Positions 1 to 48,742 of a DNA stretch of 64,000 nucleotides are shown piece after piece (positions within the stretch are counted from its first letter, which is position 1; each line of letters begins with the position of its first letter). The stretch comes from Endomicrobiales bacterium (lineage in GTDB: Bacteria > Elusimicrobiota > Endomicrobiia > Endomicrobiales > JALOBY01). The stretch spans positions 1 through 64,000 of the forward strand of contig CAWCNJ010000006.1 of assembly GCA_963796955.1 (NCBI GenBank), in the 5' to 3' direction. A program made the translations under genes and the position numbers. Under the pieces are notes generated by a model, which saw only the letters and a list, made by a program, of their open reading frames with translations, was not told the origin of the DNA and did no database searches.

Positions 1-3000
1 ATCGCCCTTGAACAGGGAACGGCGAATGTAGATGCCGCATGGTACGCTCTGCATACAAAAGCCATGGACGAACTCGGCCGGGCAGCCACAGCGGTAGGCA
101 CCGCGACAAGTCTGGTAGAAAACCTTACCCCGAAAGCCGGCAATAACAGTGATACAGCCAGAAAAATTTCCACAGCATACTTCACAGGTATACAAAACGA
201 TATAGATGCCTGGAAGACCAGAGAAAGCTGGGTAAAAGGTATTTCCGATATTTTGATCGCGGGTCTTTTAGGTTTCATGGCCTTTATGGGTGCACAGTGG
301 GCAAAAGAACGCAATGAGAAGATGAAGGCGGAATTCGCCGCCAAGGAAGCCGCCGTTGTTTCTGCCATCTTTGCCCGCAGGGCAGCTTACTCAAAGGAAA
401 ATGCTAACCGAGTTAACGCTGCACTTGACGCTATGGCCGGCAAAACCGGGAAAACCATCAGGGAAAGGTTCAGCAGCTTCAACGCCCCCAACCTGAGAGG
501 CCCCGCTGTTCTTGCCAGGCTGGATGCGTATTTAAATTCAGATTCTGTCTCGATGACAGATGCTTTCTTTCTCATTAACTTGATCAGTGATCTGGCCGAC
601 AAACCCGGTAGCGCCCAGCTTACAGCCCTTAATGAAGCCATTGTAAAATTGTCGTCCCAGCAAAACCCCATCCGTTTTGACGATAAGAACAAGCCAGCCG
701 CGCCTAACAAAAACAAGACAAAAAAAGCGGGCATTATCAGCGCCACGATAGTTGCTTTAGCGTTATTGATGGGCACCGGCAAAGCCATGGCAAACACCAA
801 TCAGACTGAAGCTAATAAAATGTCGGTTAAAGATTATGTTGCGATGAAGAATGCGGAAAGCGTGCGTACTATCGATACCGTCGGCAGGACCGGCGATCTG
901 TTGCAGGCGGTTTTCTCTGATGCCAAAACGCCTAACCGGATCCGCCTTGCCGCCGCGCGTTTCTGGTATGCTTCTGATAGAACAACGGCGTCTTTAAATG
1001 CGCTTATGCAATTCACCAAAGCCGGCGAACGGTCTGAAATGCTGCCGGCCCTTATGGATGCGACGCAGCTTGGCACAGATCTGGTACAACTAATTCTTAC
1101 GGACCAGGCTTCTACGAACGCGCAAAAAATAGCCGCACTGCAATTTGCGCGTCTCTCGTTTACTAATGAAGCTGATCTTGCAGGTATTGACGCAAGGATA
1201 GCCAGCCTTGAAAGAGCCGGCCAGCCGGACAACGCGTATAAGCCTGCGCAGGCAAAGGTCAAAACCGCCAAAGCGGCTAAAGCCGCGCCCGCAAAAACCG
1301 CCAAATCAGCAAAATATGAAACAGCAAAGAGCAAGGCGGACAAAGCCGGCGAAGAGTTTGATACTGTAGCCGGAAAAGTGACGCCGGTAATAGAAAGCTA
1401 CAACAAAGGTTTGCGCACACCTGAAAACGGTCGTGAATTTTTAAAAGCCAGGACAAAACTTGCTGAAGCCTACAACAAGTGGGTAAAAGCCAACGACGAG
1501 GCAGAAAGACTTAACCCGGATAAAGGATCAAAAACATCGGAGAGCGCGCACGCCCAGGCTGTAAAAGCCGAAGCCGATAGAGTTTTCTCAATTGCAAAAG
1601 AAAATGCGGCACTGGCTAAAGCGGCCTTTGAAAAAGAGACGTTTTACCCGGGTATGATCGATACGTATAAAAAGGCGCTGGACCAATACTATAACGCAAG
1701 CCTACAACAACAGGAAGCCGAGAATATAGCCAACGGGCTTCAGCCTGCGGCATCTGCCGCGAAAGGCACCTACGCGGACGCGAAAAAAGCTATGGCGCAC
1801 GCGATAGAAGTTTTCGATAAGGCGAAAGCGAATTTCATGGAGGCTGCTAAAAATAAAATACAAGATGCGAACTCAACCGCGAAGAAAAAAACATTTGACG
1901 CTGCCGAGGCTGAATTTGTTAACGCAAACAATCTGCGCCTTGAAGCCGCCACTATATTAAAAGATTTTGAGCTGATGGAAGCCTACACCGGTACGTCGTC
2001 GAAAGCCAAGCCGACTGCATCCGCGAAAAAAGCCGCGAAGCCTTCCGCAACGACATCCGCTCAGGCTAAAAATGAGCCTGCCGCCGATGGATTTACCGCG
2101 ACTAAAATTGCTCCCGTAGAACTTCCGAACGCAAAACTGCAGCCCGCCGGGAAGCTTACATTAGTAGAAGGCAACAAGGGCTGGACGTATACTGTCGATG
2201 CTGTCAAGGTCAAAGCTGAAAAGCCCTGGTACGGCGGCAATGTTGTGCTGCTGGGACTGCTTGCCATACTGGCTACGGTGCTTTTACAACCAACCCTGAG
2301 AGCCTGGCTGCTTGCCAAACGCGATGCCGCCGCAGAAAAATACGCGAACGCGAACAAAAGTTCCATTCTGGATCTGGTAGAAAAATATAAGGATCAATTG
2401 CCTGAAGGCGTTGCGGACTATGTTAAAACAAACCTGATCTTTATCCTTCGACCCCTTAGTGACGAAGAAACCAATGAGTTGAAAGACATAATAATCCATT
2501 GTCACGTTTCAATGGACAAAGGCGCGGACGAAATAACTGCGGCACAGAACGAACTTGCCGCCTTTATGGAGAACCTGAGACAGCAAGCTAAGGACAGATC
2601 TGTTGAGCCCATGAAGGGCGAAGTCCGGGACATGGTGGAAGCGTCTGCTAACGCGCTACCGAAAGGTGTTGCCTACTATGTGCTGGTAAGCCTGGTCAAC
2701 ATTTCCCGCGACCTTAACCGCGAAGAAGCTGACACATTGTTGCGCATGATAACCGCTTATGTTACTTCTTCTGTCAAAAACGGAGCCACAGAAAAGGATT
2801 TCGTAGACGCCATAAAAGCCTTTATGCAAGGCCTTGTTAGCGTTCCGCAGCAGGCCGCCCCTGTTTCACAAAAAGACATGGTTTTAGCGCTCCTTGCCGC
2901 TAATAGCGAGAAAGCTACTAAGCTTTTCCCTGAAGTATATGGCAAGATCACGGCAAATTTGGCTGCGCTCAACAGGCCGCTTGACGCTGCGGAAGCCAAA

Positions 3001-9000: not shown

Positions 9001-12000
9001 CAAGGCGCAGTTAAGTTGGATGGAAAGTTCATTTTCAATATGGTTAAGGACCTTCTGCGCAGCGGCGACGCCGAAACAGCCGCCTACAGCGCCGCTCACT
9101 TCGTGCAGATAATCCTGAACCCCGACGCCCCGCTGACGCTGCCGACGACTGTCCAAGCGATCGATAACAAGAAATTCGTTGATTCGCTCGTTGATCAGTT
9201 CAGCGCTATGCCGGATGTCACCGTTGAACGTAAGGGGAATGAATTCCTGCTTACAAATACAAAAGAGAATACCGAGCTTAACGTTACACTTGTTGAATAC
9301 AAGGGCAAGAACTACCTTAAGATCGGCAACGCAACCTATATGGTTACCGGTGATAGGATAGACCTTTCTAAGGCGAACATTCTGGATAATGTCGCACTTG
9401 TCGAATTCATCGGCACGGAAAATGTGACCTTGGAAAACCTAATTATAAATAACCCTCTTTCTGACCAACAGGAAGCCTCCGGTCTGCGCCTGTTTCCGGC
9501 GAACGCTATGTATCCGTCACTTGTCGGCCAGTCCGGTGAAACGGATCTAACGATAGGCTCGGCCAGGAATCTCATTAAGGGTTCAGCTGATAAACTTACG
9601 TTATATCAGTCGCTTATGAACGCCACAGTGCTTGCCCGAAGCAGTGAATGGCAGGACTACTATGATTCAATCGCATTTCTTCGCAGCTTAAGAGACAAAA
9701 ATTCTGGCGTTCAGAAAGATATTGTAATTGGGCTCCTGAATTATCTGTACATGTCCCATTCTGGCCCTGATTATGAGAAGTGGGCACAAGAGAAGGAAGC
9801 AATAAAAGCAAAACAGGCAGCGGCGGCAAGCGGCACAGATAACACGCTTACGCTGTTCGAGCGCCCGATAGAGCCCACGCGTCTGCCGGTACCGGAATCT
9901 GAGTTGAAGGACTGGGTGATAGATTCTGTCTCAGCGTTGGGCGATAAAGACTTGCCCATGCTTTCTCCTGAAGGCGTCGATACCGAAGGCAGCAGGGCCA
10001 TTAAGGAAGGCAAGATCACGAACATCATATTTGCCGGCGGCTCCGCCTCGACCGTTAAAAAGACCATGGGCAAAAATAAAATGGTTCACATGGCGCTGCA
10101 GGTGATCGTGAACACAAAAATTGGTTCTACCGTTACCCGCTGGATAAGCCTTTTACAGGCGCGCCTTGGTTTGCTGCTGGGTCAGAGCGCTAAATCCCGT
10201 ACGATCATTATTACCAGCGAAGGCGGCATAGTAGAAGGTGAAAGTGACCTCAGCACAATGAAGGCTCTTTCAGAAAGCTACTCCGGCCAGGTTAAATCCG
10301 GCCAGGTTAAAACCCTGATACAACGTAACGGCTTTGTGTTAGACACCAAGACCGGCGAGCCTCTTACGTTTAAAGACGGCAGCATTGCCACCGCTGCGGA
10401 AAACCACTTATGGGCTTTCTTGACCGTGCTGCTTAATAAAGATGCCACTATGGACGCCCTTGAACATACGAATGGTGTTATGTCCATGGGTAATGGCGAT
10501 AACATACTTAACTATGCCCGTCAGGGTATGGTTGACGAGATACTGAATGCCCGCAAACAGGGAAAATCGGTTGCTACGGTAGCTGTGTGCGTTGCTTCAT
10601 CCGGCGACAAAAAAGGCGGCGTCGTAAGCAAGGTTACCTACCGTAACAAAGTAACAGGCCAGAAAATTGATCGCGTAGAATTCCGGGAAACCGGTGAGTA
10701 CCCGACCAGAGATAAAGAAGTTACAAAGTTTGATTCCGTAGATATGAAAAAAAGGCAGGGCACGGAGGCATACAAACAGTTCGAGGCTAAGGGGCAGTTC
10801 ATTGAAGATATTATGGGCGACAAGAAGATAGCGTTCAATGTGGCTTTCTATGGTGTTGACGCAAAGCTGATCGTCGCCCGCATGTTCGGGTTAAGCGAAA
10901 ACGACCCGCAGCTGATACAGAAATTGAACGCTATCAGCCCGCAGGAATGGGTTGACCGCGTGAATTCCTTCGGCGCAAAAGTTCCCCGCACGGTTCAGCC
11001 TGCCAAGGGCGTGCCAAGCGAAGACGGCAAAGAAAAGGCTACCGGCCTTATCACGGAACAGGCCGTGCAAGATCTGATCGTGAACGGTTTGGCGCTTCTT
11101 ACACAGAACGGTAACACACCTGAGGTGCGCATGGTGTTGGTGGACCGCAAAGATATATTCCTGCCATACAAGGGTACAGAGCAGGATGCTATGGATCGCG
11201 CAGGTAACGCTGTGCCGGGCAAAAAAGCCTACGACCTGATAGCCAATCAGCCCCGTTACGCCGGTGCTGTTGATGAACTGAACGCCAAAGGCGTGCCAAT
11301 AGTTCTTGGCGAAGGCGAAACGGTCAAAGAAGTTATCCCTGTTGGTAGTGTTGACGAGATCAAGGCAGCCATTGCAGGCAAAGCCCCCGCAGCAGGTTAC
11401 GCCCACGAATGCTGCAACGGATCTTGTTGCTGTAGCGGCGGACTTCATACCTGCCGCGGGAAAGACAGCAATAGACGTAGCAGGCAGGACCTGGGCGAAT
11501 GAGAACCTTAAGGAACTGGCAGAAAAAGGCTTTGCGGCGCTTGCGACGGCGGACCGGTTTGATGATATGTACGCCAAGACTGTTGAAGCCGTGGAGAACG
11601 GCGTGCATATGCGGTTGTTAACCAGCCGGTCAATAGACAGTTTCGCTGACAGTGCAAACGCGAAAACCTTCTATGCCGGCCGTACCGTGACCAATTCTAT
11701 TGGCCAAGAGCAGTATGTCGGCATGAAGCTCTCTGTTTTCACCCGCACTGAAAAGCGCAATGGTAAAGACGTGAGCGTGCCCATAATCGCCGTTGATTTT
11801 GCGGAAGGCGTAAACCCGGCGGGCATATCACGCGAAGTGCTTCTTGTGGCTGCTTCAAACGTAATGGCCGAAGAAACCCGCGAAGGCGGCAAACTTAATG
11901 ATGACGCCTTCGGCGGCTTCGCTGCCATGGGCCGCCTGCTGGATGGCACACCGGCACTTAGCGTATCTGTAAACGTTTCTGGCCCCAATGTTTTCGGCAA

Positions 12001-13988: not shown

Positions 13989-14000
13989 ACGACGTTGATA

Positions 14001-14086
14001 AACTCCCTCAATCCCTCTTTAACTAAAGAGGGAAGGCTTTGGAAGTCCTTCCCCTCTTGTGTTCAAGAGGGGATAAGAGGGGAGTT
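14001..14086. repeat. REP-like double-hairpin palindromic element, copy 1 (may also act as terminator)
   Basis: AACTCCC...GGGAGTT encloses CCCTCTTT-AACT-AAAGAGGG and CCCCTCTTG-TGTT-CAAGAGGGG. A similar copy lies at 45515. Confidence 0.8.
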
Positions 14087-14141
14087 GATGTATCTGAAAT
14101 CTGAAATTTGGAATAGAAACTTCTACTAAGAGGAAAACAAC

Positions 14142-26252: not shown

Positions 26253-26330
26253 TCATCCCGCCAAGCGGGATGAATTTCAGATCTAAGCTGATCCCGATAT
26301 GCAACGGCATCTCATGCCGCTGCATATCGG
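26253..26330 (+). terminator. Two hairpins between giants 2 and 3
   Basis: TCATCCCGC-CAA-GCGGGATGA followed by ATTTC; then CCGATATGCAACGGCAT-CTC-ATGCCGCTGCATATCGG. Confidence 0.55.
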
Positions 26331-26380
26331 CCCGTCCGTTCCATTGTCCGTCCAGGCCGTGAAGTTCTCTGATTATATAT

Positions 26381-32300: not shown

Positions 32301-35300
32301 TTCCGGATTTCGCCGCGGTGGTAACAGAAGAAGATAAGATCGCCCTGGTTAACCGCCACAAGCGCCCTGAAGTCGCGGGCAAGCTTTTAAGGGGCGTGAA
32401 CCTGGTGATGCATTGCGCCGACGCGGCCGTACAGATCGCCGAACCCTTATCTCTGAACGACGCGATAATCGCGATCTCTATGAACGTGGTAGAGAACATA
32501 CGCGATTCCAAACCAAAGTGGGGCGTCAGATTATCGCGGCATATGCTGCAAGACGCCCTGTGGAAAACCATCCGCGAAAACCCCGAACGCACCTTCACCC
32601 CGCGGGAACTCGGTATACTAGCCGCCCACATCGCCTGGAACATGACCCACCCTGATGCGAAGCTGACGCTGCAAGGGGAAAACCCTGGTCCCGACAGCCC
32701 GCGGACTATACAGGCGATCGAGGCTTTACGGGAGCAGTACCTTACCGCTTACAATAACGAGTACTTTATCGAAGCCGAATTCCTTATGGTGAAAATACTT
32801 GAGAAAATACAGGCTCTGAAAGACCGCGAAACCTATCTGCGCGGCCTGGTGCCATTGCCCTCCGTGGAGGCGGAAGTTTCAACTACCAAGGGCTGGGGCG
32901 AGGCTGCAGTCAAAGAGTTTACTGCGAAGGGTATCCTGGTCCCTACCGGGAATGATGAGTACTCCGTTGTCGTGGATTGGCCGAAGGGCGAGGTAGTTTT
33001 AAAAGGACAGGGTAAAACCCAGGCGCTTCACCGCGCGGCGGTAGCATACACACATGAGATGACGCGGCTTGGTCTCTGCGGCCTGGGTGAAGATGGCTAT
33101 CTTAAGGTGCCCAAAGGTCTTAAGGAATTTCTGGAATGGCTGCAGGCGGTGCAGGCCGACGGGAAAACAGGCGGATCGCGCGGCGGCCCGGCGAACACTC
33201 AGTTGAATTTGCCGAGGGTAGAGGATAAGACTACCGGCGAAATAATACAGGTGGGCACTGAGCAGGAGCTGATAGATAAGCTGGGTCGGGAAACGGTTTT
33301 TGCCGCTGATGACCGTGAGATACTGCGTATGGGGGCCGTGCATGAACATGAGTCGTCTTACGAAGAAGATTTTCTTGACCGCCATTATGTAACAGACCCG
33401 AAAATACGAGCTCTGTTAAAGAACGGCATATCCCTGATGAACCGTTCCGAGATGGCAGCCCGGGATATAGTTAATTTCAACCCGCTATTTGCAATCGATT
33501 ATGAGCATATATCAAAACTTGCTATACATTTGGCTAAGTTGATAAACAAAGATGTTCCAACCAATGAGATCAAGGTCTCTGTTGATGATCTGTACCACGC
33601 AATGAAAACAACGTTTTTTGAGGACCCCTGGTTCAACCCGGACGGCAGCCAGGCAGATATATTTGCCGCCCTTGCAAGGATCGGCACCCATATCGGCTTC
33701 AACCTGCAAAACAGGCTGAATGGCCGCGCCCATGTGAAGTTGACTCTGCCGAAGACTGACAAGGTTGCCGAGGCTGCGAACGCCCTTGAAGACGCCTTCG
33801 TGCCTCTGGCGGACGTGCTGGCTATTGATAGTAATGTAGACGCGCACCCTGCCGATTTTTCTCTCCTCGTTGGTAATCCGGATATGCAGTCGTATATTGT
33901 CTTCGCGCAAAAGTGGCTGGAGCGGGCAAAGAAGGGCCACCGTTCCCGCATCTTGATCTCGGGCGGGCGCGGCAGCGGTACGTTGCCGCTTATCGCGAGT
34001 GCACGCCGGTATTTGCCGCCTAAAATTCTTGCCAAAGTCGAACAAATGCTTACTGCCGCAGAAACTGACGAAGGCGTCAAAGAAGCCGATATCACGTATC
34101 AAGTTCTCGTTGCAATGGGACTACCAGAAGAAAAAGAGTTCATGCGGCTAGAGCGGGAATCTCTTACTACCGGTGAGGTCTTAAAAAATAGCAAAAACAT
34201 TCTTGTTGATTGGGCGGCAGAATCAAAAATTAGTGACCCATCAATAGGCATCGTGTGCACCGGTGCCAGAGAGGCCCGCGCCTGGGCAACCGCCCATGCC
34301 GAATGGGCGGACCTGATAAATTCAAGGGGCTGGCGCATTCTTGCCGACCCTTCAAAAACAGTAACAAAAGATTCTTTGCACCAGCTTACTCCCCAGGAGT
34401 TGGCAATGGTCTGTAAAGACATCGTCGGCATCCCCGAAGCCGCCGCAAAACAATTGACCTTGAATATAACCAGCGAAGTCGATGGCCTGAACCCCGCGAA
34501 CAACGATAACCTTGAAAAAATAAGGACGCTCGCTGACGGCGGCAGAGATAACTGGAAACGCGTTTTTGAAAAAACGCAGTCCGTGCGCACCGAAGCTGCC
34601 CCATTGCTCGCCACCGCCCGCCAGGCCCTGAACACTTTAATGACCGCCCTGGGAGATAGAGTAACCTACGCACAAGACCCCAACAATAAAACCACCTGCA
34701 CGATAACCATAACTGATGAGAACGCGGGATCGCAATTGACTATCCCTGAAGCCGCCGGCAGGCCTGGCACCATTGGGGAGATAAAGGCTGAGGAAGTTGA
34801 AAGCCGGAAAGAAGAGCAGGGATTCGACGTGGAAAAATGGTGGACAGGGCTTGGTGAGAACGAGCAAAAGCGGCTTATCGGCGAGCATGAGAAAGCCTAT
34901 TTTGACTGGGTTCATGCGCAGAAAGGGAATGAGGATGACTATAAGATCGCCAGAGAAGCGCTAGTGGATCTGCACAATCCCACGGAAAAAGCTCGCCCGG
35001 TTTTGCGCGAAGGGATAGATTTTGTAACAGACTCGATGGACGAGGTTAAGCGGGTAACGGTAAACATCCTGAAATTTGATATCGATACCGTCGCCCTGAA
35101 TATCTATCGAAGGCTTCAGGCGACCAACCCAGATCCGAAAGCGAAACTGGAATTGAAAGAAATCGCCGATCTGATGAGAAAGAGCTACGCCGAAGCAGCA
35201 AAGAAGGGCATCCAGCTTTCAATAAAAGACCTTGCCAATATCGCCGCCCACGCCGCCTGGAACCTGACCCACTTTGATGCGCAGTTAACGTTTGGGCCGT

Positions 35301-38300
35301 CAATGTCTCCTACGGTAGAAGTCAAATTGCCGGTTTTAGGCGATATGTTCGTGCCGCCGGGTGAGTTACAACCTGTCACAATAGAGGCTGTGGGCGAAAC
35401 CACCGTGAACGGCGACCGCGTGGTGCGCAACCTGCGCTATAACGATGATTGGCATATGGTCGTTTTCAAATTCAAGAGCGGTAAATTTGTGCCGGAAGCT
35501 ATCCTTGAAGTTCCCGATAACGCCGGCAGGTATTCTCTTAACGGCACCAGGCTTGCCATGCAGGTGCCTTACCTGGAAAAGTGGAAGATAGGTATTTTTA
35601 ATGCGGTGAATGGCCGTTATGTGCAGGAGGCGGAACTCCCTGAAATAGGTATGAGCTTTATCACGCCGGACGGCTCAAGCGCCAAGATACAAAATTCCGA
35701 TGAGATCATTCTGAGCGGTGACCGCCTTGCCTGCAGGCTGTTGTATAACGGCAAATGGCATACGGTCGTATTTGAACAGGATGTGCCGGGCATCTGGACC
35801 GCGACAGCGGAACTGCGTGACGAAGGCGCCCCCGCGACAGACATCTATCCTCAGGCGGAGGCAGTTGAACTGCTGGCCTTCAACGGCGATCTTATGATAC
35901 GCAAGGTTACCGGCAAGATCGATTCCAAGCGGATGGTCCAATACATCGTATCCCGGCGCGATCCGAAAGGCGGGTGGCACGACGTTTCACTGCTCCCGGG
36001 CCCGAGAGCCGGCCTTAAGCTGGGTGGCGAGCTGAAGACAGTAGACTCAATAACAACAGATTTTGTGCCGATGGACGGCAACCGTTTCGCCGCGACCGTG
36101 CGCTACGATGATAGTTTTCATACGGTGGTTTTTGAGTTCGATTCGCACGGCCGCCATAGAGCGATCGCTGCCTTCCCTGACTTCGGCGCGCAAGCCGTTG
36201 TTTACGGCCGCGAATTGCCTGTGCCCGTCATGATAGAAGGTATTGCCGGCATGTTCTTCAGCGGCGACAACCTGGTACGGAGTATGAAGTATAAGAACCG
36301 CTACCACATGGCCTACAACATGCTTCCTGCGCCGGTCGAAGCCCCTTCAGCGGCGGCCAATCCCTCGTACAGGGTATTACTTAATAGCCTTGTCGCCATT
36401 TTCGGTCTGGGTTTATTAAATTCCGCCTGCCAGTTGGCCGGGCACCATACTGCGGTCATAGCTAGTCCTGTCATGCTAGTAATAATAATTTTGGTCCTGG
36501 AAGAGCTCAAGCATTCCAGACACAGAAGAGAAGCAGACAGGTTGGCGAATGAAACAATGGATGACGTTGCCAGAAGGATAAATACAAAACCCGGATTTGC
36601 GGAAGCGCCCGGCGAAGGCAATGGCAGCATAGAAGTTATCAATGGTAAGAAGAAAGTCGCCCCGACGCCGGAAGAGTTAAGCGCTATTGTTGACAAACTC
36701 TCAGGCGCCAAAAACAAAATACTCTTTAAAGGTATCGGCAACAAAGATGGATCAAAATTGCCTTCGCTCCGCCTGGACGGCACCGTGGACGCGATAATAC
36801 GGCAGCAGGGCGAACGGATCTGGAATTCGTTGTCGGATGGGGATGAAAGCACGGTCTGGGCTCACATGGATAGTTTGCATCGCCTCGCCAAAATAAAAGA
36901 AGCACGCGCGGGCCGCCAGGTGCAAGTCAGCGCCGATGACGCAAAAATAGCTTTGGGCAGGGGCTTTTGGAAACGCCTGGATTCCGATCCCTGGGAACAG
37001 GAGAGGCTGGTCGCCGTTCATGAGAACCCCGTGGTGCTGAGTCCAAAATTTGTCAGCTGGCATAAGGAAACGAACCCGGGTTACGAAGCGGAGCTTTATA
37101 AAGGCTGGGGAAGAATTAAAGAGATCGCGCAATTTGCCGAACGGTTCGCCGAGGCCGATTTTGAGGACGCCATTGCTGAGATCGCCGCCGAAATAGCCCA
37201 AAAAGTACTGCCGGAAGAATACCGGGCCGACCTCGAAAAAAGCTTTGTAAATAATATCATCCGGATAATTACTACAACAAAAGGAGAGGGAAAAATAACC
37301 GCCCTCCCCGCCCTGGCTACCATGGCCGCCCACGCCGCCCAAAACCGCGCCTGGCAACTAACCGGCCGCCCCGACCTGAGGCTGACGCTGGGTGAAAATG
37401 ATCAATATAATAGCAATCCAGAAGCCAAAGGTAACGCTGTTGGATCAGATACCGCAGAATCTCCGGTGACTGATGTTAATCATTTAAATACATCCCCTAC
37501 TTCCCGTGTCACTGTCGAGCTTTTCGATACCGGGTTGGATCAGCAGGAATTCTCACAGTTCTTTAATGAGGATCCTGCCGTAGCTACTATGTTTAAAACA
37601 CAATTTAATCTGGGCAGAGAAGATGTGGCGACGGTGAATGTACGCTCATATTCCACGGTCGGCCAGCAACGAGAGGTTTTCCTGGTAACGCTGGCCCCCA
37701 AGAAAGAGCCGGAGCGCCGCTATCAATTCATCATGAAGAGGTCGCGCCTGCCATACGCGGGCAATCAGTTCCTGATAGCGCATGAAACGCTTACGAAAGT
37801 CGTTAACCGCAAATTAGGAAACGACTTTGTGCACCTATTCGATGTGGGCGGTCATATAGTTACCACCGGTCCATTACAGCAGGGTATCGTATTTACAAAT
37901 TGCAAGGAAGACCGCAAGGCACAGGCCGCGGTGGTAAGGGAATCTGTCTCCATCTGGCACCAGCTCGGCGGATATTTCATCTACGATATTCATCATCATC
38001 AGTACCTGGTAGATTATGATCAAAACCATGATAACCCGCAGGCACATCTGGTGGACAAGGGCCATTTCAGGTTGCAGGAAGGCGTGGAGCTAAATTTCCA
38101 GAATATGGGCGGCGAGCTTGAGCCCCGCGCAGGTGACAAAGACCTGTCGGTACTGGGCGGCTGGCTGCAGCCGGTTTCAGAATACAACTTGCTTTTCAGT
38201 TTGCGGGACGGCTTGAATGCCACACCGCCAACAAAGCAGAAAACGAGCGCGTACGTCGATCCCGATATGGAAATGATGGCATTGTACCAACCGTTCGTCT

Positions 38301-41300
38301 TTAACGATCAGGCGCTGATACAGGGGATCGTGGAAGCATTGGGGAACGAAAAAGCTGTCGATTTCTTTAAGGCTGTATTAAAAGAAAATGACGTACGCCC
38401 CTCGCGCAACAAAACAGTTCAAGAACTTATGGGTGTCGTCGCACAAAAATACCCTGAGCTGTTCAAGAAGTTGAAGAAACCGGAGGTGTCCTCGATTAAT
38501 GCCAACAGCGAGGAGATGAGTGCGAGTCCTTCTGAAGGTTTGCCTAATACCGGCACAGTTTATCGCCTGTTGGAGGGCAAAGAACATAAGGAAATAGTGA
38601 ACGAACTGTCCAAAAACACTTTCTTTCACCGTGCGTACAATGTCCTTATTGGTGTCCGTAGCGATCTGGATGATCTGGGTAGAGATATGGCGGATGAAGA
38701 TACGGTATACATTGCTAAAAAATTCGAAATGATCTTTGCAAACTACAAAGATCCGGATTTCGTTGAAAAAAACAGCGAGGAACTGAGCAAATACCTTGGC
38801 CAGGTGCAGGGTACACTTAGAAAGGAAATGGGGATGAAAGACGCCTACGAAAAGGATCCAAGGGTTTTGGTGAACCTGTTGGCTCCGCTTTGCATGCATG
38901 AAACTCCGGTCATTGACCATGGTGATGTTGGTTTTATAGTGGCGCTCTCTGAGCGGTTTAACTTTATGCCAGACCAAGTGGCAGAGCAGGCTTCTCTGTT
39001 TGAAAGCAGGAAAGAAAATTCGTTTGCAAAATGTGTTCTTGCCCTCTTTGCGATCGCCCAGGCGCAAGCCGGCATGCGCGAGCCTGGCTCGGCGCGCAAG
39101 TTGATCGGTACTGAGCTCGGCGCCACAGCCATCCAGGCGCTGGATGCGAACCCCGCATTGCTGGCGGCGGAAGCTGTATCTCCGGTTAAAGCTGCCGAGA
39201 ATAGCCTGCCACTGGTGCTTAATGTGGTGAAGACTACAGCGCTGGCGGTGCAGAATGAAATTGATGTGCGTAATCCTGCGGCGCAGATACTGGGGCCGCT
39301 GGCGCAACAGGGGATGGTGTTGTTGGCGACGAAGGATACGATCGAAAAAATGCGGGGGCTTGCGGAGAAGCTGGCGGCTCTGGGTGTTCATGTTACGCTT
39401 ATTACCACGGCGGAAGCGGGCGCTGGTATGGCGCGGGCTGGCTGGCAGGCGGGGGCGGCGCAGCCGTTGTTTGCCGGCGGGCGGTTGACGGCGGGGGTGA
39501 ATACGATATATAAGGGAATTAAATTTTCGCGCACTGAGTACCACAAAGATGGCTCTGCGCCACTGGCGATAATGACGGTTGCCTCGCTGGACCAAAGGCC
39601 GTTGGTATTTGAGGGCGAGGGTGAAGATAGCGACAAAGCCCTGGCTGAAAGAGCGGCTGCTGATGCCGAACTGCTTACGCTTGCAGCCAAAGCGGTTGCC
39701 GACGAAACCGTTGAGGGTGGTGTGCTGGAACGTCCGTTCGGCAATAGAAAGATGTGGGGCCTGGTAGCCGATGGAACGCCTGCTCTTGAAAGTTCTATTG
39801 ATGCCGTTAGTCATTCACTAATGGCTAACTATCAGATAGATAATTGGCGTGATGGCGATGAAGTAAAGAGACTTCTTGAACAGATGGTCCTTGGCTTCAA
39901 ATCTCAAAAGAAGCTTCTAGAGGAATTTCCTCTTGTTAGCTATGAACGACAATCCCGCCAGGTGTTTATGAGTTCGTCCGTTCGGGTTTGCACGGCAAGT
40001 TTGCCCGGCAAGAACCGCACCGGGCGTAATGCGGATAAAGTTGAGTTCGCCAGATGGGCCGCAGGCAAAGGCGCGAATATGCTGTTGTGCAACGACCGCC
40101 TGCCGGGTAGCGAAGACCCGTTCTCCGTAGACGTATTAACCGTTGATCTTGATCGTTTGGTAGACCGTCTGTTTAATGAAGGTGTAATAAGCCGTGATAA
40201 ACGCAGCGATCTGCTGCAAGACCTTAACCCGCTTAGCACTGATGTGACGGACCGGATAAACCTGGCCGACCAAAAGATACTGCGCAAGTGCATGAACACC
40301 GTTGCAGGCGAATTGGCTGTTCTCTGTCGTGAGAAGGGTATAAAGGTGGGAGCTGCCGTGCAGGCAGACGGAGAAAAATTGATCCTGGCGCTCAGCCGCC
40401 AGCAAACACGACAGGCGGCAGCCGCGATGCTGACACCTCATATCGAACTTTCCGGCGTTATATATGGCCAGGATCTCGGCGTTATCGCTAAAGGGCACGT
40501 GCCGGAGCTGATAGAACTGCTTAAAGAAGTTCCTGCCGTAAGCTTTAATTCAAGCGCCTTGAGCTCTGAAGAAGCAGCGGAATTGTTTTCCGCAATCGCC
40601 GATGCCAGGGCCATCGCTATCCGGGCAGGCGACCGCGGCCTGAAAGAAAAAATTATCATTACCGAAACCTCTCCCCAGAATGCTCTGATCGCCGCCCGCT
40701 TCGGCATACGGGCGCACGTTAATGCAGCTAAGGCAGGCGGCGCCGACAACCTTATCTCACAGGCCAATGCCGCCATAATAGTTGATAACGAAGATGATGC
40801 CAGGATGGTCGTTAAAAAAGGTTTCTCGCAGTTGGTAGCAGCCTTCAAAGGTTTTAACGATGATGACGGCAGCCTTAACCGCCTGTCTGACGCGACCAAT
40901 AAAAATGAGCAGGGTTTGCTGGCCATCCTGAAGGCGGCAATGCCGGGATCCCACAGAGAAATTGTGACGCCTGAAGGTAGGTTTAACGCCGGTATAAACG
41001 AAGGTAATGCATATGGAAACCATATGTTCGGTTACAAGGAAGGCGCTGCCTTGTGCCTTGGCCTGCCGGGTTTTGCAGAGGCAATAAAACATCTTAAGGG
41101 TGTTCTTGCCAACGCTAATTCAACCAGGGAAGACGTTGATAAAGCGCTTGATGCGCTTGAAACCATTATGGCCAGCGCTCTAACAGACGAGGAATCGGAC
41201 AACAAGAGCGATAAGCGCCGGATGCTGAGCAGATTATACGCAGGCATCAAGGCAAGCCGCGCAGTTGCCGCCAACGATGATCATCGCCTGCTTGGTTTCC

Positions 41301-41734
41301 AGGTGTATGGTGTCCTTACCTCATTTGTCGGCATTGCGATGCTGGTTGGTCTTGATGAAGGCATTGTGAAAAGTGATATTGATTCCACTGGTCTTATACC
41401 GATAACTCATTTGATGACAGAAGTTTATATCAATGGCCTTACGCCGGAAAAACTGAAAACTGATGTCGCAGCGGTCTCCCCCCGGGCACAAGGTTTGCGC
41501 GCTTTACTGGATAGCACCGCCAATGCCGCCACCGTCACCGCAAGCATTTCATATCAATTCGAACGCCCAACAATAACCATCGGCGATGACCCGCCGCGCG
41601 ATTACCTTACCCTAGCCGCCCGCGCCATGCTGGTTCTGCTTAAAGACAGCGACAGAACCGACCCCAAAGAAGTGCTCGGCTCGGCCACACAGGCCGACGT
41701 TGATCTCTTCGCCGAAGTCCTGCGCGCCGGATAA
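26381..41734 (+). CDS. Giant multidomain protein 3 (5117 aa)
   Basis: Uninterrupted ORF. The first ~560 aa are closely paralogous to giant 2 (e.g. FTGITDPAIKEKTLESLLGEGLLSGA is identical). Confidence 0.95.
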   Translation: MFNNNSFIRLIARVVLAAFVYSFVAFEPLYGIATMDASAATVRAAVNEQLDTLVLSARMGHISDGCYVSPESGARSPERTTGGNSQLLRSSVSGLRTKNDRLIIFIQDLHCNAEVQKNINDILAFFDTKYGLQKIFVEGAPAGKTDLSLFTGITDPAIKEKTLESLLGEGLLSGAAYYGAKNNKENLYGLEQWDLYKENAARMSSLLSGKAASSMVYSRLTAMLEETKGLRCSTTFKIAEHKIKKDEKSADKYALLAKLADKNNISLLQYPNLKRQIAASGLSRHIKFKKLPADLQTFLKAMQAKLPYGVYKTLAEKLSDNARDGEFYLNLRQAASAYAPELLAGAARGSSLPNVENFLEYVRLNYSVNPHCLVNEENQFKQELLESSAQTLIDRNVLFMQSMTEKFKGFVNLGMTPADYTFFKAHVEEYTVTLLKYYGEQKTAAARALLENKELYAYYDVNLQRNDVFAKELLSVPSVKSVSSVKIINEYTEVIKHLSEFTEIDAVVTGGFHTETAKALSEHGISCITITPSVTRQTTGDLYERFMAGALSPQDLGISALAGRITVPDFVAGLGRAAIEQPGITLTAFIELLQKAADTFPGRVRVSHDGNNVTVTMLTDNNVRQSVTFTYKADGKFTTNAAEWAKSAATPGAFSLMKQSTEDYALENPFLLWLSQRFWGAGFAAVYVYASLRYAPLLEAVEFLHALMDPQAGRRFLEEHKGSNWFRIKSFLALSFILSPVFDAYTVTRSALGIDGKKAHLDSASLDPTTVLAAAVIITILVPVHFAYNFLVAFPNFFLKWFTGKGIAFTTDNGGVAAKENGALPAVLSGRLSGNDLASAGASLAALNAATRQKLLKRFGYIGPKDVHGVRRWLKDTAWLAARENIQAIDTDKMLSDLGNSGFVTAEQARQVGVLAENAAMRADIEKQLKAGKAVVAYGVEIRFDPVSQQFMFRSDRSLLRQFSQTPLQARAPPKVVVNVLVWNGFEETKQLLRSLAKVNTPNVEVVLLDNGSTDKQKIREFMDKEFSLDPPFTLTLLQSPVNLGFDEGHNVLVDYALDTARADNVIMLNSDIIVEENFYDGMLHPFEDGFSIDGKTANPGVVGPLVLNEAARKKHEKGEPIRPEEIITAGFDYDGAGRPATVQSSWSARRTDEVWGMAMAFPQLALREAGAWDPRFFAYGEEADLAQRLREANYDIIVTKDTKVWHGERSREGSLTSLLAIENGIKNSLLNYRKHPAPEEFVSRNAEAFGYFLKEGAKGFVKAEGLRKKLSYFAASVRGLAAGIAGKFSNAQADEISVIQNAVAPARVPAAADAAALAGNGVLTLPKAFDKEGVEVQKGTVQELIEEQGSWATRENWWDSLPAFTQARMIAMHERGEVFRYDDKGKIFVARHYPATDLDRTELQKGVDAMAQAMEVASVWAGCGASETVLLEVIARHIAEAASKKSSREAVKEYAASLPRRDANGTVIPHEKYLELVNTYAAEQKEKYRLLETDKVLTVDEIAQLIHDVRLDFRIKLRMPYPGWAEIAKVSMQAAWDLTHGVNAQLTLKKTLKKNATAGNKGLTYFLADKRAQQKLFDELLIQLGEAEKTLDVERALAIHDRLLAIPPQVLTLEQTELMVKKIIPEGFRLIRTGLISESSRAEAAGAGSAAPQGTIGLTKKIIVPNVSNEKKIPTKERAALFSQQRIQANIKLLQRQYRAALRKRNKVEAAIVLQKILDAGDKEAVAGLPSIAVDSDEAWDALALAELKAKGLIKEAGLKTYSVVKNWPTGTAFEPSAVLASSLVKEKVVISNDDALPTEERLSLDMGKREALYFSLLIYMKYMGIRRTDGSDNDRGFGNYLNRLAKAASEEQKINQPSEEAYKTAQVKFFIKHGVLVKTSRIGNDYRLVTNWYPQLDERARKLSPYLLDTDEAVKQAGYTYYGSKDPESANQQLTFPETEEQVQKDRGISPQDWKNKTPPLERNRLVSVHELPDFAAVVTEEDKIALVNRHKRPEVAGKLLRGVNLVMHCADAAVQIAEPLSLNDAIIAISMNVVENIRDSKPKWGVRLSRHMLQDALWKTIRENPERTFTPRELGILAAHIAWNMTHPDAKLTLQGENPGPDSPRTIQAIEALREQYLTAYNNEYFIEAEFLMVKILEKIQALKDRETYLRGLVPLPSVEAEVSTTKGWGEAAVKEFTAKGILVPTGNDEYSVVVDWPKGEVVLKGQGKTQALHRAAVAYTHEMTRLGLCGLGEDGYLKVPKGLKEFLEWLQAVQADGKTGGSRGGPANTQLNLPRVEDKTTGEIIQVGTEQELIDKLGRETVFAADDREILRMGAVHEHESSYEEDFLDRHYVTDPKIRALLKNGISLMNRSEMAARDIVNFNPLFAIDYEHISKLAIHLAKLINKDVPTNEIKVSVDDLYHAMKTTFFEDPWFNPDGSQADIFAALARIGTHIGFNLQNRLNGRAHVKLTLPKTDKVAEAANALEDAFVPLADVLAIDSNVDAHPADFSLLVGNPDMQSYIVFAQKWLERAKKGHRSRILISGGRGSGTLPLIASARRYLPPKILAKVEQMLTAAETDEGVKEADITYQVLVAMGLPEEKEFMRLERESLTTGEVLKNSKNILVDWAAESKISDPSIGIVCTGAREARAWATAHAEWADLINSRGWRILADPSKTVTKDSLHQLTPQELAMVCKDIVGIPEAAAKQLTLNITSEVDGLNPANNDNLEKIRTLADGGRDNWKRVFEKTQSVRTEAAPLLATARQALNTLMTALGDRVTYAQDPNNKTTCTITITDENAGSQLTIPEAAGRPGTIGEIKAEEVESRKEEQGFDVEKWWTGLGENEQKRLIGEHEKAYFDWVHAQKGNEDDYKIAREALVDLHNPTEKARPVLREGIDFVTDSMDEVKRVTVNILKFDIDTVALNIYRRLQATNPDPKAKLELKEIADLMRKSYAEAAKKGIQLSIKDLANIAAHAAWNLTHFDAQLTFGPSMSPTVEVKLPVLGDMFVPPGELQPVTIEAVGETTVNGDRVVRNLRYNDDWHMVVFKFKSGKFVPEAILEVPDNAGRYSLNGTRLAMQVPYLEKWKIGIFNAVNGRYVQEAELPEIGMSFITPDGSSAKIQNSDEIILSGDRLACRLLYNGKWHTVVFEQDVPGIWTATAELRDEGAPATDIYPQAEAVELLAFNGDLMIRKVTGKIDSKRMVQYIVSRRDPKGGWHDVSLLPGPRAGLKLGGELKTVDSITTDFVPMDGNRFAATVRYDDSFHTVVFEFDSHGRHRAIAAFPDFGAQAVVYGRELPVPVMIEGIAGMFFSGDNLVRSMKYKNRYHMAYNMLPAPVEAPSAAANPSYRVLLNSLVAIFGLGLLNSACQLAGHHTAVIASPVMLVIIILVLEELKHSRHRREADRLANETMDDVARRINTKPGFAEAPGEGNGSIEVINGKKKVAPTPEELSAIVDKLSGAKNKILFKGIGNKDGSKLPSLRLDGTVDAIIRQQGERIWNSLSDGDESTVWAHMDSLHRLAKIKEARAGRQVQVSADDAKIALGRGFWKRLDSDPWEQERLVAVHENPVVLSPKFVSWHKETNPGYEAELYKGWGRIKEIAQFAERFAEADFEDAIAEIAAEIAQKVLPEEYRADLEKSFVNNIIRIITTTKGEGKITALPALATMAAHAAQNRAWQLTGRPDLRLTLGENDQYNSNPEAKGNAVGSDTAESPVTDVNHLNTSPTSRVTVELFDTGLDQQEFSQFFNEDPAVATMFKTQFNLGREDVATVNVRSYSTVGQQREVFLVTLAPKKEPERRYQFIMKRSRLPYAGNQFLIAHETLTKVVNRKLGNDFVHLFDVGGHIVTTGPLQQGIVFTNCKEDRKAQAAVVRESVSIWHQLGGYFIYDIHHHQYLVDYDQNHDNPQAHLVDKGHFRLQEGVELNFQNMGGELEPRAGDKDLSVLGGWLQPVSEYNLLFSLRDGLNATPPTKQKTSAYVDPDMEMMALYQPFVFNDQALIQGIVEALGNEKAVDFFKAVLKENDVRPSRNKTVQELMGVVAQKYPELFKKLKKPEVSSINANSEEMSASPSEGLPNTGTVYRLLEGKEHKEIVNELSKNTFFHRAYNVLIGVRSDLDDLGRDMADEDTVYIAKKFEMIFANYKDPDFVEKNSEELSKYLGQVQGTLRKEMGMKDAYEKDPRVLVNLLAPLCMHETPVIDHGDVGFIVALSERFNFMPDQVAEQASLFESRKENSFAKCVLALFAIAQAQAGMREPGSARKLIGTELGATAIQALDANPALLAAEAVSPVKAAENSLPLVLNVVKTTALAVQNEIDVRNPAAQILGPLAQQGMVLLATKDTIEKMRGLAEKLAALGVHVTLITTAEAGAGMARAGWQAGAAQPLFAGGRLTAGVNTIYKGIKFSRTEYHKDGSAPLAIMTVASLDQRPLVFEGEGEDSDKALAERAAADAELLTLAAKAVADETVEGGVLERPFGNRKMWGLVADGTPALESSIDAVSHSLMANYQIDNWRDGDEVKRLLEQMVLGFKSQKKLLEEFPLVSYERQSRQVFMSSSVRVCTASLPGKNRTGRNADKVEFARWAAGKGANMLLCNDRLPGSEDPFSVDVLTVDLDRLVDRLFNEGVISRDKRSDLLQDLNPLSTDVTDRINLADQKILRKCMNTVAGELAVLCREKGIKVGAAVQADGEKLILALSRQQTRQAAAAMLTPHIELSGVIYGQDLGVIAKGHVPELIELLKEVPAVSFNSSALSSEEAAELFSAIADARAIAIRAGDRGLKEKIIITETSPQNALIAARFGIRAHVNAAKAGGADNLISQANAAIIVDNEDDARMVVKKGFSQLVAAFKGFNDDDGSLNRLSDATNKNEQGLLAILKAAMPGSHREIVTPEGRFNAGINEGNAYGNHMFGYKEGAALCLGLPGFAEAIKHLKGVLANANSTREDVDKALDALETIMASALTDEESDNKSDKRRMLSRLYAGIKASRAVAANDDHRLLGFQVYGVLTSFVGIAMLVGLDEGIVKSDIDSTGLIPITHLMTEVYINGLTPEKLKTDVAAVSPRAQGLRALLDSTANAATVTASISYQFERPTITIGDDPPRDYLTLAARAMLVLLKDSDRTDPKEVLGSATQADVDLFAEVLRAG
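26585..26671. repeat. In-frame inverted heptamer array (4x AGYCCGG, 31-nt spacer, 4x CCGGWCT-like)
   Basis: AGCCCGG AGTCCGG AGCCCGG AGTCCGG ... CCGGTCT TCGGTCT CCGGACT CCGGACT. Confidence 0.85.
27802..27837. repeat. In-frame tandem nonamer array x4
   Basis: GTCCGTCCC GTCCGTAAA GTCTGTTTC GTCCGTAAA (encodes SVPSVKSVSSVK). Confidence 0.75.
29300..30240 (+). other. GT2 family glycosyltransferase domain (WbbL-like) within giant 3
   Basis: VLVWNG, VLLDNGS, NLGFDEGHN, MLNSD, WDPRFFAYGEEADLAQRL, VWH. Confidence 0.9.
33845..34350 (+). other. YdcF/DUF218 (SanA/ElyC-like) domain within giant 3
   Basis: ADFSLLVG, ILISGGRG, EAD...MGLP, LERESLTTGE. Confidence 0.75.
37630..38080 (+). other. Protein-kinase-like fold domain within giant 3
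   Basis: VGQQREVF (Gly-loop-like), FIMK, YDIHHHQYLV (catalytic-loop-like), LVDKG (DFG-like). Confidence 0.5.
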
Positions 41735-47894: not shown

Positions 47895-48742
47895 GAACAC
47901 GCTACCGCACTATTGCCTGTTTCCTGCTGCCTATTGCCTGTTGTTTATCCGGTTGCGGCGGTCCCGAGCGTTTGTTCAACAAAGCTCAGGCGCTTGAAGG
48001 CAAGGGCTATTTTGTAGAAGCCGGCATAACCTATGATAAACTCGCAAAAAAATATCCCGCTGCCGCCCTTGCGCCCGAGGCGCTTTATCGCATTGGCCGC
48101 ATTTACCAGAAAAAATTAAAGTTGTTCTCTTATTCCACGCGGTACTATCTTTCCGTTATAGAAAAATATTCTTCCGCTCAGCAGTGGACGGCTCTTGCGG
48201 GACAGGGTTTGCTTACCTCCCCCGATTACTTCCCGCTGCACGCCGGTAATTTCTGGATAGAAGGCGATTCTGATACCGGCGGCGTAAATATGCGCGCCGA
48301 GTGGAACTGCGGGGTCATCTCATCCGGGACTTGGGTGATAGCCCGTCGTATATCAGCCGGCTCGCATTTTGTAAAGGAAATAAAGCAATATTACCGGATA
48401 AAGGGCTCTCAGCTGTGCCAGTTCTCCAGCCAGCAGGAGGATACGGGTGTTGTCATATTGTCATACCCTTTTGAAAAAGGCCGCAGCTGGCGGACCGTGA
48501 GCGATGGTAAATGGATGGAATACCGGGTGGAAGCTACGGATGAGCGGATAGCTGTAAAGGCAGGCAGCTTCCCCGGCTGCCTTAAGATAGGCGAACGCAA
48601 CCTTGCCTACCCGGGCTCAGTAAAATACAATTACTATGCCCCTGAGACCGGCTGGGTGCTTACAACCACCGCCCTGGTCGGCGGCACCGAACACCGCAGC
48701 ACCGAACTGTTGAGCTGCAAGGTGTTCCCGGAGGAATTTTAA
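47891..48742 (+). CDS. TPR-containing lipoprotein
   Basis: ATGA overlap with the VanZ-family gene; lipobox LSGC; APEALYRIG TPR. Confidence 0.8.
   Translation: MRTRYRTIACFLLPIACCLSGCGGPERLFNKAQALEGKGYFVEAGITYDKLAKKYPAAALAPEALYRIGRIYQKKLKLFSYSTRYYLSVIEKYSSAQQWTALAGQGLLTSPDYFPLHAGNFWIEGDSDTGGVNMRAEWNCGVISSGTWVIARRISAGSHFVKEIKQYYRIKGSQLCQFSSQQEDTGVVILSYPFEKGRSWRTVSDGKWMEYRVEATDERIAVKAGSFPGCLKIGERNLAYPGSVKYNYYAPETGWVLTTTALVGGTEHRSTELLSCKVFPEEF

Follow-up and report, generated by a model that had tools for sequence, protein, structure and literature searches.

Giant modular proteins of Endomicrobiales combine a conserved, predicted TIKI-like head with extra copies of sugar and nucleotide enzymes

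Introduction

What would a bacterium do with proteins of four to five thousand residues that begin with an export-type signal and carry enzymes of nucleotide and sugar metabolism in their interior? This question is raised by three adjacent giant genes at the start of contig C6 (CAWCNJ010000006.1) of an Endomicrobiales assembly (G000; 2.10 Mb, 11 contigs, 81% complete). The window, meaning the whole stretch of DNA analyzed here, is the first 64 kb of this contig. Its plus strand is filled from base 1 to 41.7 kb by four large reading frames (1..11502, 11988..13988, 14142..26252, and 26381..41734) that belong to the giant genes:

1..13988, plus strand: giant 1, whose 5' end is cut because contig C6 begins at window base 1.
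14142..26252, plus strand: giant 2, intact, 4036 amino acids (aa).
26381..41734, plus strand: giant 3, intact, 5117 aa.

An initial annotation of the window described three adjacent genes of more than 12 kb each, with fixed ends and swappable enzyme cargo, and proposed that they deliver effectors. Sequence comparison places the giants, as three paralogues, in a large family of giant modular proteins from Endomicrobiales (Elusimicrobiota). The firm result is that this family is lineage-wide, that its members have a head with a TIKI-type fold as judged from a structural model, and that they carry extra-copy enzymes of sugar and nucleotide metabolism.

The N-terminal head

The N-termini of giants 2 and 3 are alike over residues 1-717 and 1-720, respectively, at 57.6% identity. 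The initial annotation had recognized this shared region and put it at about 560 residues, which is too short. It is composed of a signal or anchor segment followed by a conserved head:

14160..14216, plus strand: giant 2 N-terminal hydrophobic segment (aa 7-25), a Sec-type signal or anchor with basic residues on its N-side.
14433..15809, plus strand: giant 2 head, predicted to be TIKI/EreA/ChaN-like, with invariant D106-x-H108, E136, R457-N458, and H507.
26675..28066, plus strand: giant 3 head, by homology to the giant 2 head.

All aligned members have basic residues, a hydrophobic stretch of 12-15 residues, and small residues ahead of the head. In P0131, a 3381-aa head-bearing giant with PGM domains from an 'Omnitrophica'-labeled metagenome-assembled genome (MAG), this is a textbook cleavable signal peptide. 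Because a Sec-type signal or signal anchor precedes it, the head is expected to lie outside the cytoplasm.

The head is approximately 460 aa, and its motifs Q-D-L-H, E-G-A, R-N, and G-G-F-H are invariant in 33 of 33 aligned sequences. An AlphaFold model based on this alignment (predicted local distance difference test, pLDDT, 83.3; predicted template modeling score, pTM, 0.77) is composed of a small alpha/beta core split by a helical insertion of ~270 residues. The Asp-x-His, the Glu, and the last His are located at the ends of model strands 13-20, 47-56, and 411-418. The model was compared by structural alignment with 48,161 chains, and the five top matches were:

2g5g, ChaN: Z 9.6, root-mean-square deviation (rmsd) 6.6, 183 aligned.
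6xcq, EreC: Z 9.0, rmsd 3.9, 150 aligned.
5t09, HopBA1: Z 8.7.
2rad, Bcr135-type: Z 8.1.
2qgm, Bcr135-type: Z 8.0.

PMT (2ebf, Z 7.3) and RRSP (5w6l, Z 5.9) ranked lower, and a repeat comparison again returned EreC, HopBA1, and Bcr135. According to the available part of the published description (PMC6254334), the TIKI superfamily includes PMT, HopBA1, Bcr135, ChaN, and the Ere enzymes and has a 2His/2Glu active site on the core strands. By this membership, all five top matches belong to the superfamily. The head resembles the TIKI/TraB-PrgY/Ere/ChaN proteins (EreC 6xcq, Bcr135 3b55/2rad, ChaN 2g5g) in its parallel-sheet alpha/beta core with a helical insertion, and in having an acidic-x-His on the first strand, a Glu on the second, and a His after a late strand. 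It differs in the ~270-residue length of the helical insert, in having an Asp where RRSP has its first Glu, and in always being N-terminal in a giant protein. A Foldseek search of the model against the Protein Data Bank (PDB) gave no match at E<=0.001, and none of 61 genomes from the phylum contains the TraB family PF01963. If the similarity reflects homology, the head would be a new family within the TIKI/Ere/ChaN superfamily that is divergent in sequence and has a plausible hydrolase site, and from the model we infer that it may act as a hydrolase.

Distribution of the family

Of 41 related genomes, counting G000, 34 match the first 720 residues of giant 2, and a single genome has as many as 31 matches. 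Among the matches listed, head positions ~97-556 align at the beginning of a frame or close to it, and these frames reach 12,656 aa. A profile of 33 head sequences detected the head (E<=1e-10) in 20 of the 61 genomes of a phylum-wide sample; within the window's own order, it was present in 15 of 20 sampled relatives (f10, 14 of 18; f8, 1 of 1; f1, 0 of 1). When 185,579 species genomes were scanned by pattern, 558 matches came up, and 510 of them were confirmed as head loci. The same kind of locus search with one head sequence as the query found no relative, and the alignment query succeeded. The best 80 of the 510 loci are nearly all from MAGs of Endomicrobiales, Endomicrobiaceae, Endomicrobia, or Elusimicrobia, and their habitats are groundwater, peat, rumen, and termite gut. 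Two head loci, on a short 'Nanoarchaeota' contig and on a 'Bacteroidota' contig, probably reflect binning errors. The protein database yielded 124 head-bearing proteins of 2219-7063 aa, and the weaker ones are Omnitrophica-labeled.

G000 has seven head copies. Their loci span 105,934 bases, or 5.0% of the assembly, and frames of at least 1200 aa occupy 15.9% of it. Tandem arrays of head-bearing giants recur in other genomes, one of them a single-contig genome.

Other giant frames are also present in G000. A single in-frame TGA lies between paired giant frames at C4:124837-124839 and at C8:325465-325467, which might reflect read-through, a pair of neighboring genes, or an error. An alternative genetic code was considered for these two codons and rejected, as ordinary genes read normally. 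Contig C2 (2-15256, minus strand) has a 5085-aa giant frame that runs off the contig start and is rich in 'DYNNDGWLDVF' repeats. These repeats are presumably FG-GAP/VCBS-like, and we take this giant to belong to a different, adhesin-like family. For the window giants, an adhesin or repeat protein was rejected: they have neither repeats nor adhesin domains in Pfam scans (whole or in 3000-aa pieces, and as 600-aa chunks) and an NCBIfam scan.

Cargo enzymes in the window

The middles of the giants are 3833 (giant 1), ~2500 (giant 2), and ~3600 (giant 3) residues long. They lack mutual similarity at E=1 as well as internal repeats, and at E 1e-4 the rest of the genome holds no paralogue of them. 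When they were used as queries for homologues, the searches returned one partial relative for giant 1 and only a weak glycosyltransferase family 2 (GT2) match for giant 3, and a PDB sequence search with residues 721-5117 of giant 3 gave no match. Nor did the frame-1 part of giant 1 match anything in Pfam, NCBIfam, or PDB sequence searches; a crude hydropathy scan shows about eight strongly hydrophobic segments in it. The bodies are composed of largely helical unassigned sequence, scattered hydrophobic segments, and complete enzyme-type modules. The following modules were located:

23061..23726, plus strand: giant 2 cytidylate kinase (Cmk), aa 2974-3195, with an intact P-loop GTSGAGKGT.
20031..23009, plus strand: giant 2 glycosyltransferase family 5 (GT5)-like module, aa 1964-2956, directly upstream of the Cmk.
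9232..11361, plus strand: giant 1 conserved module, aa 3078-3787, with a UDPGP-like core at ~aa 3301-3790.
29324..30013, plus strand: giant 3 GT2, aa ~982-1211, soluble type, no QxxRW motif.
33947..34303, plus strand: giant 3 DUF218-like stretch, aa ~2523-2641, where PF02698 scores 26.5 bits and does not reach its cut-off of 27.6.

The Cmk of giant 2 matches Pfam at E 5e-49 and 167-172 bits (PF02224 cut-off 26), matches TIGR00017 over its full length at 177.6 bits against a cut-off of 135.55, and matches Cmk chains in the PDB at E 1e-30. Its P-loop, GAxYR, DGR, and RD..D..R motifs are present. Unlike the stand-alone cytidylate kinase of TIGR00017, it is embedded in a 4036-aa protein.

The GT5-like module of giant 2 has no direct Pfam match, and a PDB profile search returned nothing relevant. 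It is 28-36% identical to giants of G007, G014, G016, G013, and G006, in which it lies at varied distance from the head. Inside the aligned stretch, the G007 and G014 homologues have the Pfam family Glyco_transf_5 at 44.2 and 64.1 bits, respectively (cut-off 22.7). Because these aligned homologues carry Glyco_transf_5, giant 2 is indirectly supported as carrying a divergent starch/glycogen-synthase-like (GT5) module.

The giant 1 module is 41% identical to P0131 over 757 columns. The Pfam UDPGP model (PF01704) does not match it. In the ESM Atlas, a comparison by language-model features gave a score of 0.93 with 190 of 256 features shared, and the ten best matches were all PF01704, which indirectly supports a UDPGP-like nucleotidyltransferase core. 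Some relatives in the giant family carry true PF01704 domains.

The GT2 of giant 3 (PF00535) scores 25.6 bits in the 600-aa chunk scan and 22.6 in the 3000-aa scan, on either side of the 23.3 cut-off. NCBIfam PgaC_IcaA matches at 35.1 bits, which is far under that model's own cut-off. The sequence shows what we take to be the DxD-type and F-x-YGEE-x-DL motifs, and its identity as a GT2 is confirmed but borderline. Profiles of phosphorylase, GT1, GT5, and protein kinase have no match in the window. Of the cargo first listed for the giants, the Cmk therefore stands, the GT2 stands as borderline, the UDPGP-like and glucan-synthase-like modules hold indirectly, DUF218 stays below its cut-off, and the phosphorylase and protein kinase were not found.

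Cargo across the family

Of 120 listed homologues, 86 carry precomputed Pfam families, and these are highly diverse cytoplasmic enzymes (Pfam coordinates were taken for 16 of the listed homologues). They include PGM, PGI, UDPGP, PPDK_N, phosphatases, HD, AAA, kinases, and nucleotidyltransferases, as well as GT2 with deacetylase, starch synthase, amylase, RelA/SpoT, enolase, radical SAM, and pyridoxal phosphate (PLP) enzymes. The nucleotide-sugar and glycan theme first proposed for the window holds for both the window (Cmk, GT2, GT5-like, UDPGP-like) and the relatives (PGI, PGM, UDPGP, starch synthase, amylase).

Domain order is variable. No orthologue of any window giant was found in 40 relatives, and other Cmk giants share only the head and the Cmk with giant 2, with the Cmk at residue ~4178 or ~1154 versus 2972. 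The head is thus the lineage-wide constant part, and the bodies vary behind it.

The clearest comparison with housekeeping copies is provided by PGI. A stand-alone pgi is present in 40 of 40 relatives, and 12 of them also have a second PGI, mostly full-length, in a frame of 1385-4993 aa. The PGI giant begins 1-2 kb from the housekeeping pgi in at least five genomes (G027, G021, G019, G018, and G037) of several genera, which suggests that cargo is captured through duplication of a neighboring gene. Database homologues of the PGI-giant type also carry PGM. Because all relatives retain the stand-alone pgi, sequence comparison indicates that the giant-borne enzymes in relatives are extra, fast-diverging copies; some of these giants are conserved orthologues across genera.

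In G000, the only PF02224 match above the cut-off is the giant 2 Cmk, and the other, weak match is an adenylate kinase. Across the order, PF02224 exceeds its cut-off in only 9 of 41 Endomicrobiales genomes, many of which are 99-100% complete, and this is unusual for bacteria. Since so few genomes have it, Cmk appears to be dispensable in the lineage. The Cmk frames of the order are small in four genomes (232-528 aa), and the others are 1468-5103 aa. Giant 2 was also considered as the supplier of housekeeping Cmk to the cell. This is weakened by the lack of PF02224 in most complete relatives and by giant-borne PGI always being extra.

The giant-borne Cmk sequences are 15-39% identical to everything else and have long branches; the four stand-alone Cmk sequences are 50-65% identical to one another. 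The giant 2 Cmk is 31-35% identical to the stand-alone Cmk of relatives and keeps 42 of the 76 columns that are invariant in the stand-alone set.

The C-terminal module and the state of giant 1

The three giants also share a C-terminal module, and giant 1 reaches it through two changes of frame:

23775..26249, plus strand: giant 2 C-terminal module (~aa 3212-4036), no known family.
39194..41731, plus strand: giant 3 C-terminal module, by homology to the C-termini of giants 1 and 2.
1..11502, plus strand: giant 1 frame-1 part, 3833 aa, open at the 5' end.
11303..12061, plus strand: giant 1 frame-2 piece, 252 aa, start of the C-terminal module.
11973..13988, plus strand: giant 1 frame-3 piece, 666 aa from ATG 11988, remainder of the C-terminal module.
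11361..11471, plus strand: interval of the first +1 change, whose sole homopolymer of at least four bases is C5 at 11384-11388.
11959-12051, plus strand: interval of the second +1 change, which holds C4 at 11983 and T4 at 11991.

The C-termini of giants 2 and 3 are 28.4% identical across 835 aligned columns. The 666-aa piece of giant 1 is 28.1% identical to giant 2 and 28.6% identical to giant 3, and the frame-2 piece lengthens this homology upstream. The initial annotation had claimed a C-terminus common to all three giants, and this is borne out at 28-30% identity over ~800 residues. An enzyme domain directly precedes the module in giants 1 and 2 and in P0124.

The module has a narrow distribution. 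None of 40 relatives has it, and a search of 1.84 billion representative proteins gave only 12 carriers, three of them from the window itself; the giant 1 piece (P0122) was recovered in this search at E 7.8e-38. The module has no Pfam family at E<=0.01 (stray weak rows lie beyond) and no usable ESM Atlas match. Its other carriers hold different cargo, with NUDIX in one and PPDK_N in another. The C-terminal module is a private trait of a small subfamily and not a family-wide fixed end, so that the early picture of constant ends around variable cargo applies to the head and does not extend to the C-terminus.

Giant 1 is composed of three frames joined by two +1 frame changes. Because the 252-aa and 666-aa pieces are homologous to the C-termini of giants 2 and 3, it is treated as one gene with two frame changes, and the C-terminal part has no start codon that would make it a separate gene. 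Three adjacent giants are therefore present as first described; the two frame changes in giant 1 had been missed. The first change is bounded by the end of the P0131 homology in frame 1 at 11361 and by the beginning of the C-module homology in frame 2 at ~11471-11489. Since the breaks are located where the only homopolymers lie, they may be sequencing errors.

Further paralogous heads are found at the start of contig C5 (58% identity) and on contig C9 (54%). The C9 copy has at least four frame changes and the C5 copy at least two, and one more C-module lies at the C9 end. The subfamily thus has four heads (giant 2, giant 3, C5, and C9) and four C-modules (giant 1, giant 2, giant 3, and C9). 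The heads are 75-90% identical in the core and 25-40% identical at residues 600-780, and no similarity is found after that. Judged from these alignments, the window giants and the C9 paralogue form a young local subfamily that is partly broken and shares the ~800-aa C-module. Because heads and C-modules match in number, we infer that the head on C5 belongs to giant 1 as its lost 5' part; no overlap between the contig ends of C5 and C6 was found.

These broken copies raise the question of whether the locus is decaying. In such a case, the giant 1, C5, and C9 copies would be in the process of being lost, and the middles would be fast-drifting DNA with little function. The frame changes in all three of these copies fit this, as do middles without relatives and a C-module that is only 28% identical where the paralogue heads are 57-66% identical. 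Yet giants 2 and 3 are open over 12.1 and 15.4 kb, which is beyond chance, the core of the head is 75-90% identical among paralogues, the Cmk passes an equivalog cut-off, and the breaks in giant 1 coincide with the only homopolymers and may be sequencing errors. Decay is considered highly unlikely.

An assembly artefact, in which the array is a mis-join of repeats, is extremely improbable. Three contig ends do lie inside subfamily members (C6 start, C5 start, and C9 end). However, giants 2 and 3 each run uninterrupted from a start to an end that are typical of the family, the paralogues are too dissimilar to have been collapsed (57% protein identity in the best part), and tandem arrays of head-bearing giants recur elsewhere, including in a genome of a single contig.

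Comparison with known systems

The closest published kind of protein is the 'Archaeovorins' of Omnitrophota, which have GT5, PGI, and PGM in the available part of the preprint (West-Roberts et al. 2023, bioRxiv 10.1101/2023.11.21.568195). A 'multi-enzyme metabolic cluster' class of Omnitrophota giants is described in the accessible text of Nielsen & Lui 2026 (bioRxiv 10.64898/2026.06.07.730766). As far as these texts go, both groups of giants have huge frames, an N-terminal signal or anchor, and scattered hydrophobic segments. Both have embedded GT5 or other glycosyltransferases, PGI, PGM, and sugar-phosphate enzymes, with PGI and PGM found here in the relatives, and Omnitrophica-labeled homologues that bear the head exist. 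The authors report that the side of the membrane is equally hard to place for the Omnitrophota enzymes. In the same excerpts, HEAT repeats are the most frequent domain of the Omnitrophota giants, a T2SS-like (type II secretion system) locus lies upstream, and pilZ genes lie directly downstream (West-Roberts et al., bioRxiv 10.1101/2023.11.21.568195); a pilZ gene is also downstream here, at 7 kb.

The differences are also clear. The Omnitrophota giants belong to another phylum and are reported at 10-147 kaa (thousand aa) in the portions available, versus 4-5 kaa here. The window giants have no HEAT, dockerin, or TSP3 repeats in Pfam. The Omnitrophota N-termini, as presented in those portions, are mostly without identifiable domains save for C39/S8 peptidases; here, one conserved, predicted TIKI-like head is found.

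MARTX and polymorphic toxins resemble the giants in combining a constant part with variable enzymatic modules, in their paralogous arrays, and in an RRSP-type fold. In contrast to these toxins, no RTX, cysteine protease autoprocessing domain, type I secretion system (T1SS) genes, or C-terminal toxin with an immunity gene is found here, and the variable part of the window giants is internal and made of anabolic enzymes.

Elusimicrobiota are among the phyla that are enriched in huge proteins without a COG assignment, according to the accessible part of PMC11573180. A 2024 comparative genomics study of Endomicrobia (PMC11257099) does not use the terms for giant or large proteins that were looked for in it. 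No description of the conserved head or of an Endomicrobiales giant family was found in full-text literature searches, in that study, or in the available text of the Omnitrophota preprints, whose supplements may hold domain tables. The head-defined Endomicrobiales giant family is apparently undescribed.

Possible roles of the giant proteins

As is well established for these enzyme families, the substrates and cofactors of the cargo are cytoplasmic: ATP and CMP, UTP, and nucleoside diphosphate (NDP) sugars, and in the relatives also Fe-S/S-adenosylmethionine (SAM) and PLP. The preferred reading, which is held tentatively and at somewhat less than an even chance, is that the giants are membrane-tethered multi-enzyme scaffolds for envelope glycan work. 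The signal or anchor would thread the protein into the inner membrane, so that the head would face the periplasm and the enzyme-bearing stretches would face the cytoplasm. The embedded enzymes would produce nucleotide-activated sugars and glycans and pass them on for use in the envelope. The head would then hydrolyze an ester or peptide bond, either in the exported product or in the giant protein. The reading starts from the observed gene structure, family, head fold, domain content, distribution, and extra-copy status; the topology, the catalysis, and the role in glycan synthesis would be its conjectural parts. A membrane-threaded protein is favored because it reconciles the cytoplasmic substrates, the export signal, and the hydrophobic segments.

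Several observations weigh against such a scaffold. The N-terminus resembles an export signal. Several relatives have no further strongly hydrophobic segment, and their PGI and PGM would be extracellular. By crude hydropathy parity, the membrane would even separate the PGI from the PGM within one protein, so that the placements contradict each other. One giant-borne Cmk in another genome has lost its P-loop lysine, so that activity of the cargo cannot be taken for granted. A conflict or effector system could likewise explain the rapid divergence, the arrays of multiple copies, and the broken genes. Most of the ~13,000 residues of the window giants have no Pfam, NCBIfam, or PDB assignment. As for the head, its Z scores of 8-9.6 are only modestly above the background of unrelated models in the library, a PDB profile search returned nothing relevant, and Pfam at E<=1 gave no family for 13 heads, TraB/Ere/ChaN models included, which also sets the head apart from the TIKI superfamily.

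The same features bear on the initial proposal of effector delivery, in which Sec-exported giants would be delivered to a host or prey, the cargo would act in the foreign cytoplasm, and the head or another step would release it. The Sec-type signal (textbook in P0131) and the relatives without an additional strong hydrophobic segment agree with export. Variable cargo, tandem arrays, broken copies, and long cargo branches are consistent with conflict, and the head fold is common to the effector domains HopBA1, PMT, and RRSP. The phosphatase of one relative matches the polymorphic-toxin family PF22785, and one genus has genomes of only 1.0-1.3 Mb with 0-4 copies. Against this, and as the initial annotation had itself noted for RTX, Rhs, and type V secretion system (T5SS) hallmarks, the three giants have no RTX, Rhs, T5SS, cysteine protease domain (CPD), or toxin domain in the Pfam and NCBIfam scans. 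No secretion hallmark, MARTX-type autoprocessing, or translocation device was identified, and no immunity gene was recognized among the downstream reading frames. The cargo is anabolic housekeeping enzymes and not toxins, and some giants are kept in synteny beside pgi over several genera. Radical SAM and PLP enzymes that were exported unfolded would require cofactor loading outside the cell. An effector role is no better a match for extra-copy anabolic cargo than a cell-autonomous one. Delivery of effectors is possible but unsupported, and it is considered unlikely.

A further alternative is that the giants are self-processing polyproteins, in which many enzymes are made from one message and the TIKI-like head cuts the precursor. 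This can be combined with either a scaffold or an effector role and is itself quite unlikely. The putative hydrolase residues are kept in 33 of 33 aligned heads, and the enzymes are discrete modules between long unassigned linkers. TIKI and RRSP are endopeptidases in the available part of PMC6254334, and the Omnitrophota giants have been proposed to be cleaved by N-terminal peptidase domains in the accessible text of bioRxiv 10.1101/2023.11.21.568195. Peptidase activity is not implied by the fold, however, because Ere enzymes are esterases and ChaN binds haem within the same superfamily. The head is also probably across the membrane from much of the body, and no conserved cleavage motif turned up, without a systematic search for one. 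A bolder form of this proposal holds that Endomicrobiales, and probably Omnitrophota, make dozens of giant precursors per genome, from which an exported TIKI-type hydrolase frees cassettes of nucleotide-sugar and glycan enzymes beyond the cytoplasm; this is doubtful.

Other features of the window

Downstream of giant 3 are ordinary chromosomal genes, several of which are envelope-related (GT-C/TPR, VanZ, PBP1, M23 peptidase, and PilZ). The PilZ gene (48742-49107) is 7 kb past the giants, and a receiver-GGDEF gene (55649-56560) is also downstream of them. A ResB-like frame of 168 aa (50751-51257, minus strand) covers positions 151-266 of a 486-position profile and may represent a shortened version or a disrupted gene.

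The spacer between giants 1 and 2 contains a repeated hairpin:

14013-14032 and 14052-14071, plus strand: two copies of the hairpin CCCTCTT-N6-AAGAGGG.

A third palindrome of this sequence (45527-45546) lies just within the start of the GT-C/TPR gene. The three copies in the window compare with 0 in 100 shuffles, and the sequence may be a repetitive extragenic palindrome (REP)-like element or a terminator hairpin. Rfam has no family within the window, and a promoter and terminator scan of the window gave no signal above shuffles.

Implications

The conserved, enzyme-like head is a handle by which the family can be defined, searched for, and tested at the bench. It may also correspond to the N-terminal region of the Omnitrophota giants, in which few domains have been recognized. 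Were the bolder form of self-processing true, bacteria would have a polyprotein or effector strategy whose metabolic cargo can be swapped and is deployed at the cell surface or inside a partner cell. Head-bearing giants make up a sizeable genomic share, with ~5% of the genome here and up to 31 head matches per relative genome. The presence of complete additional copies of central sugar and nucleotide enzymes after an export signal turns the question raised by this locus into a testable one, namely where and why bacteria place such enzymes.

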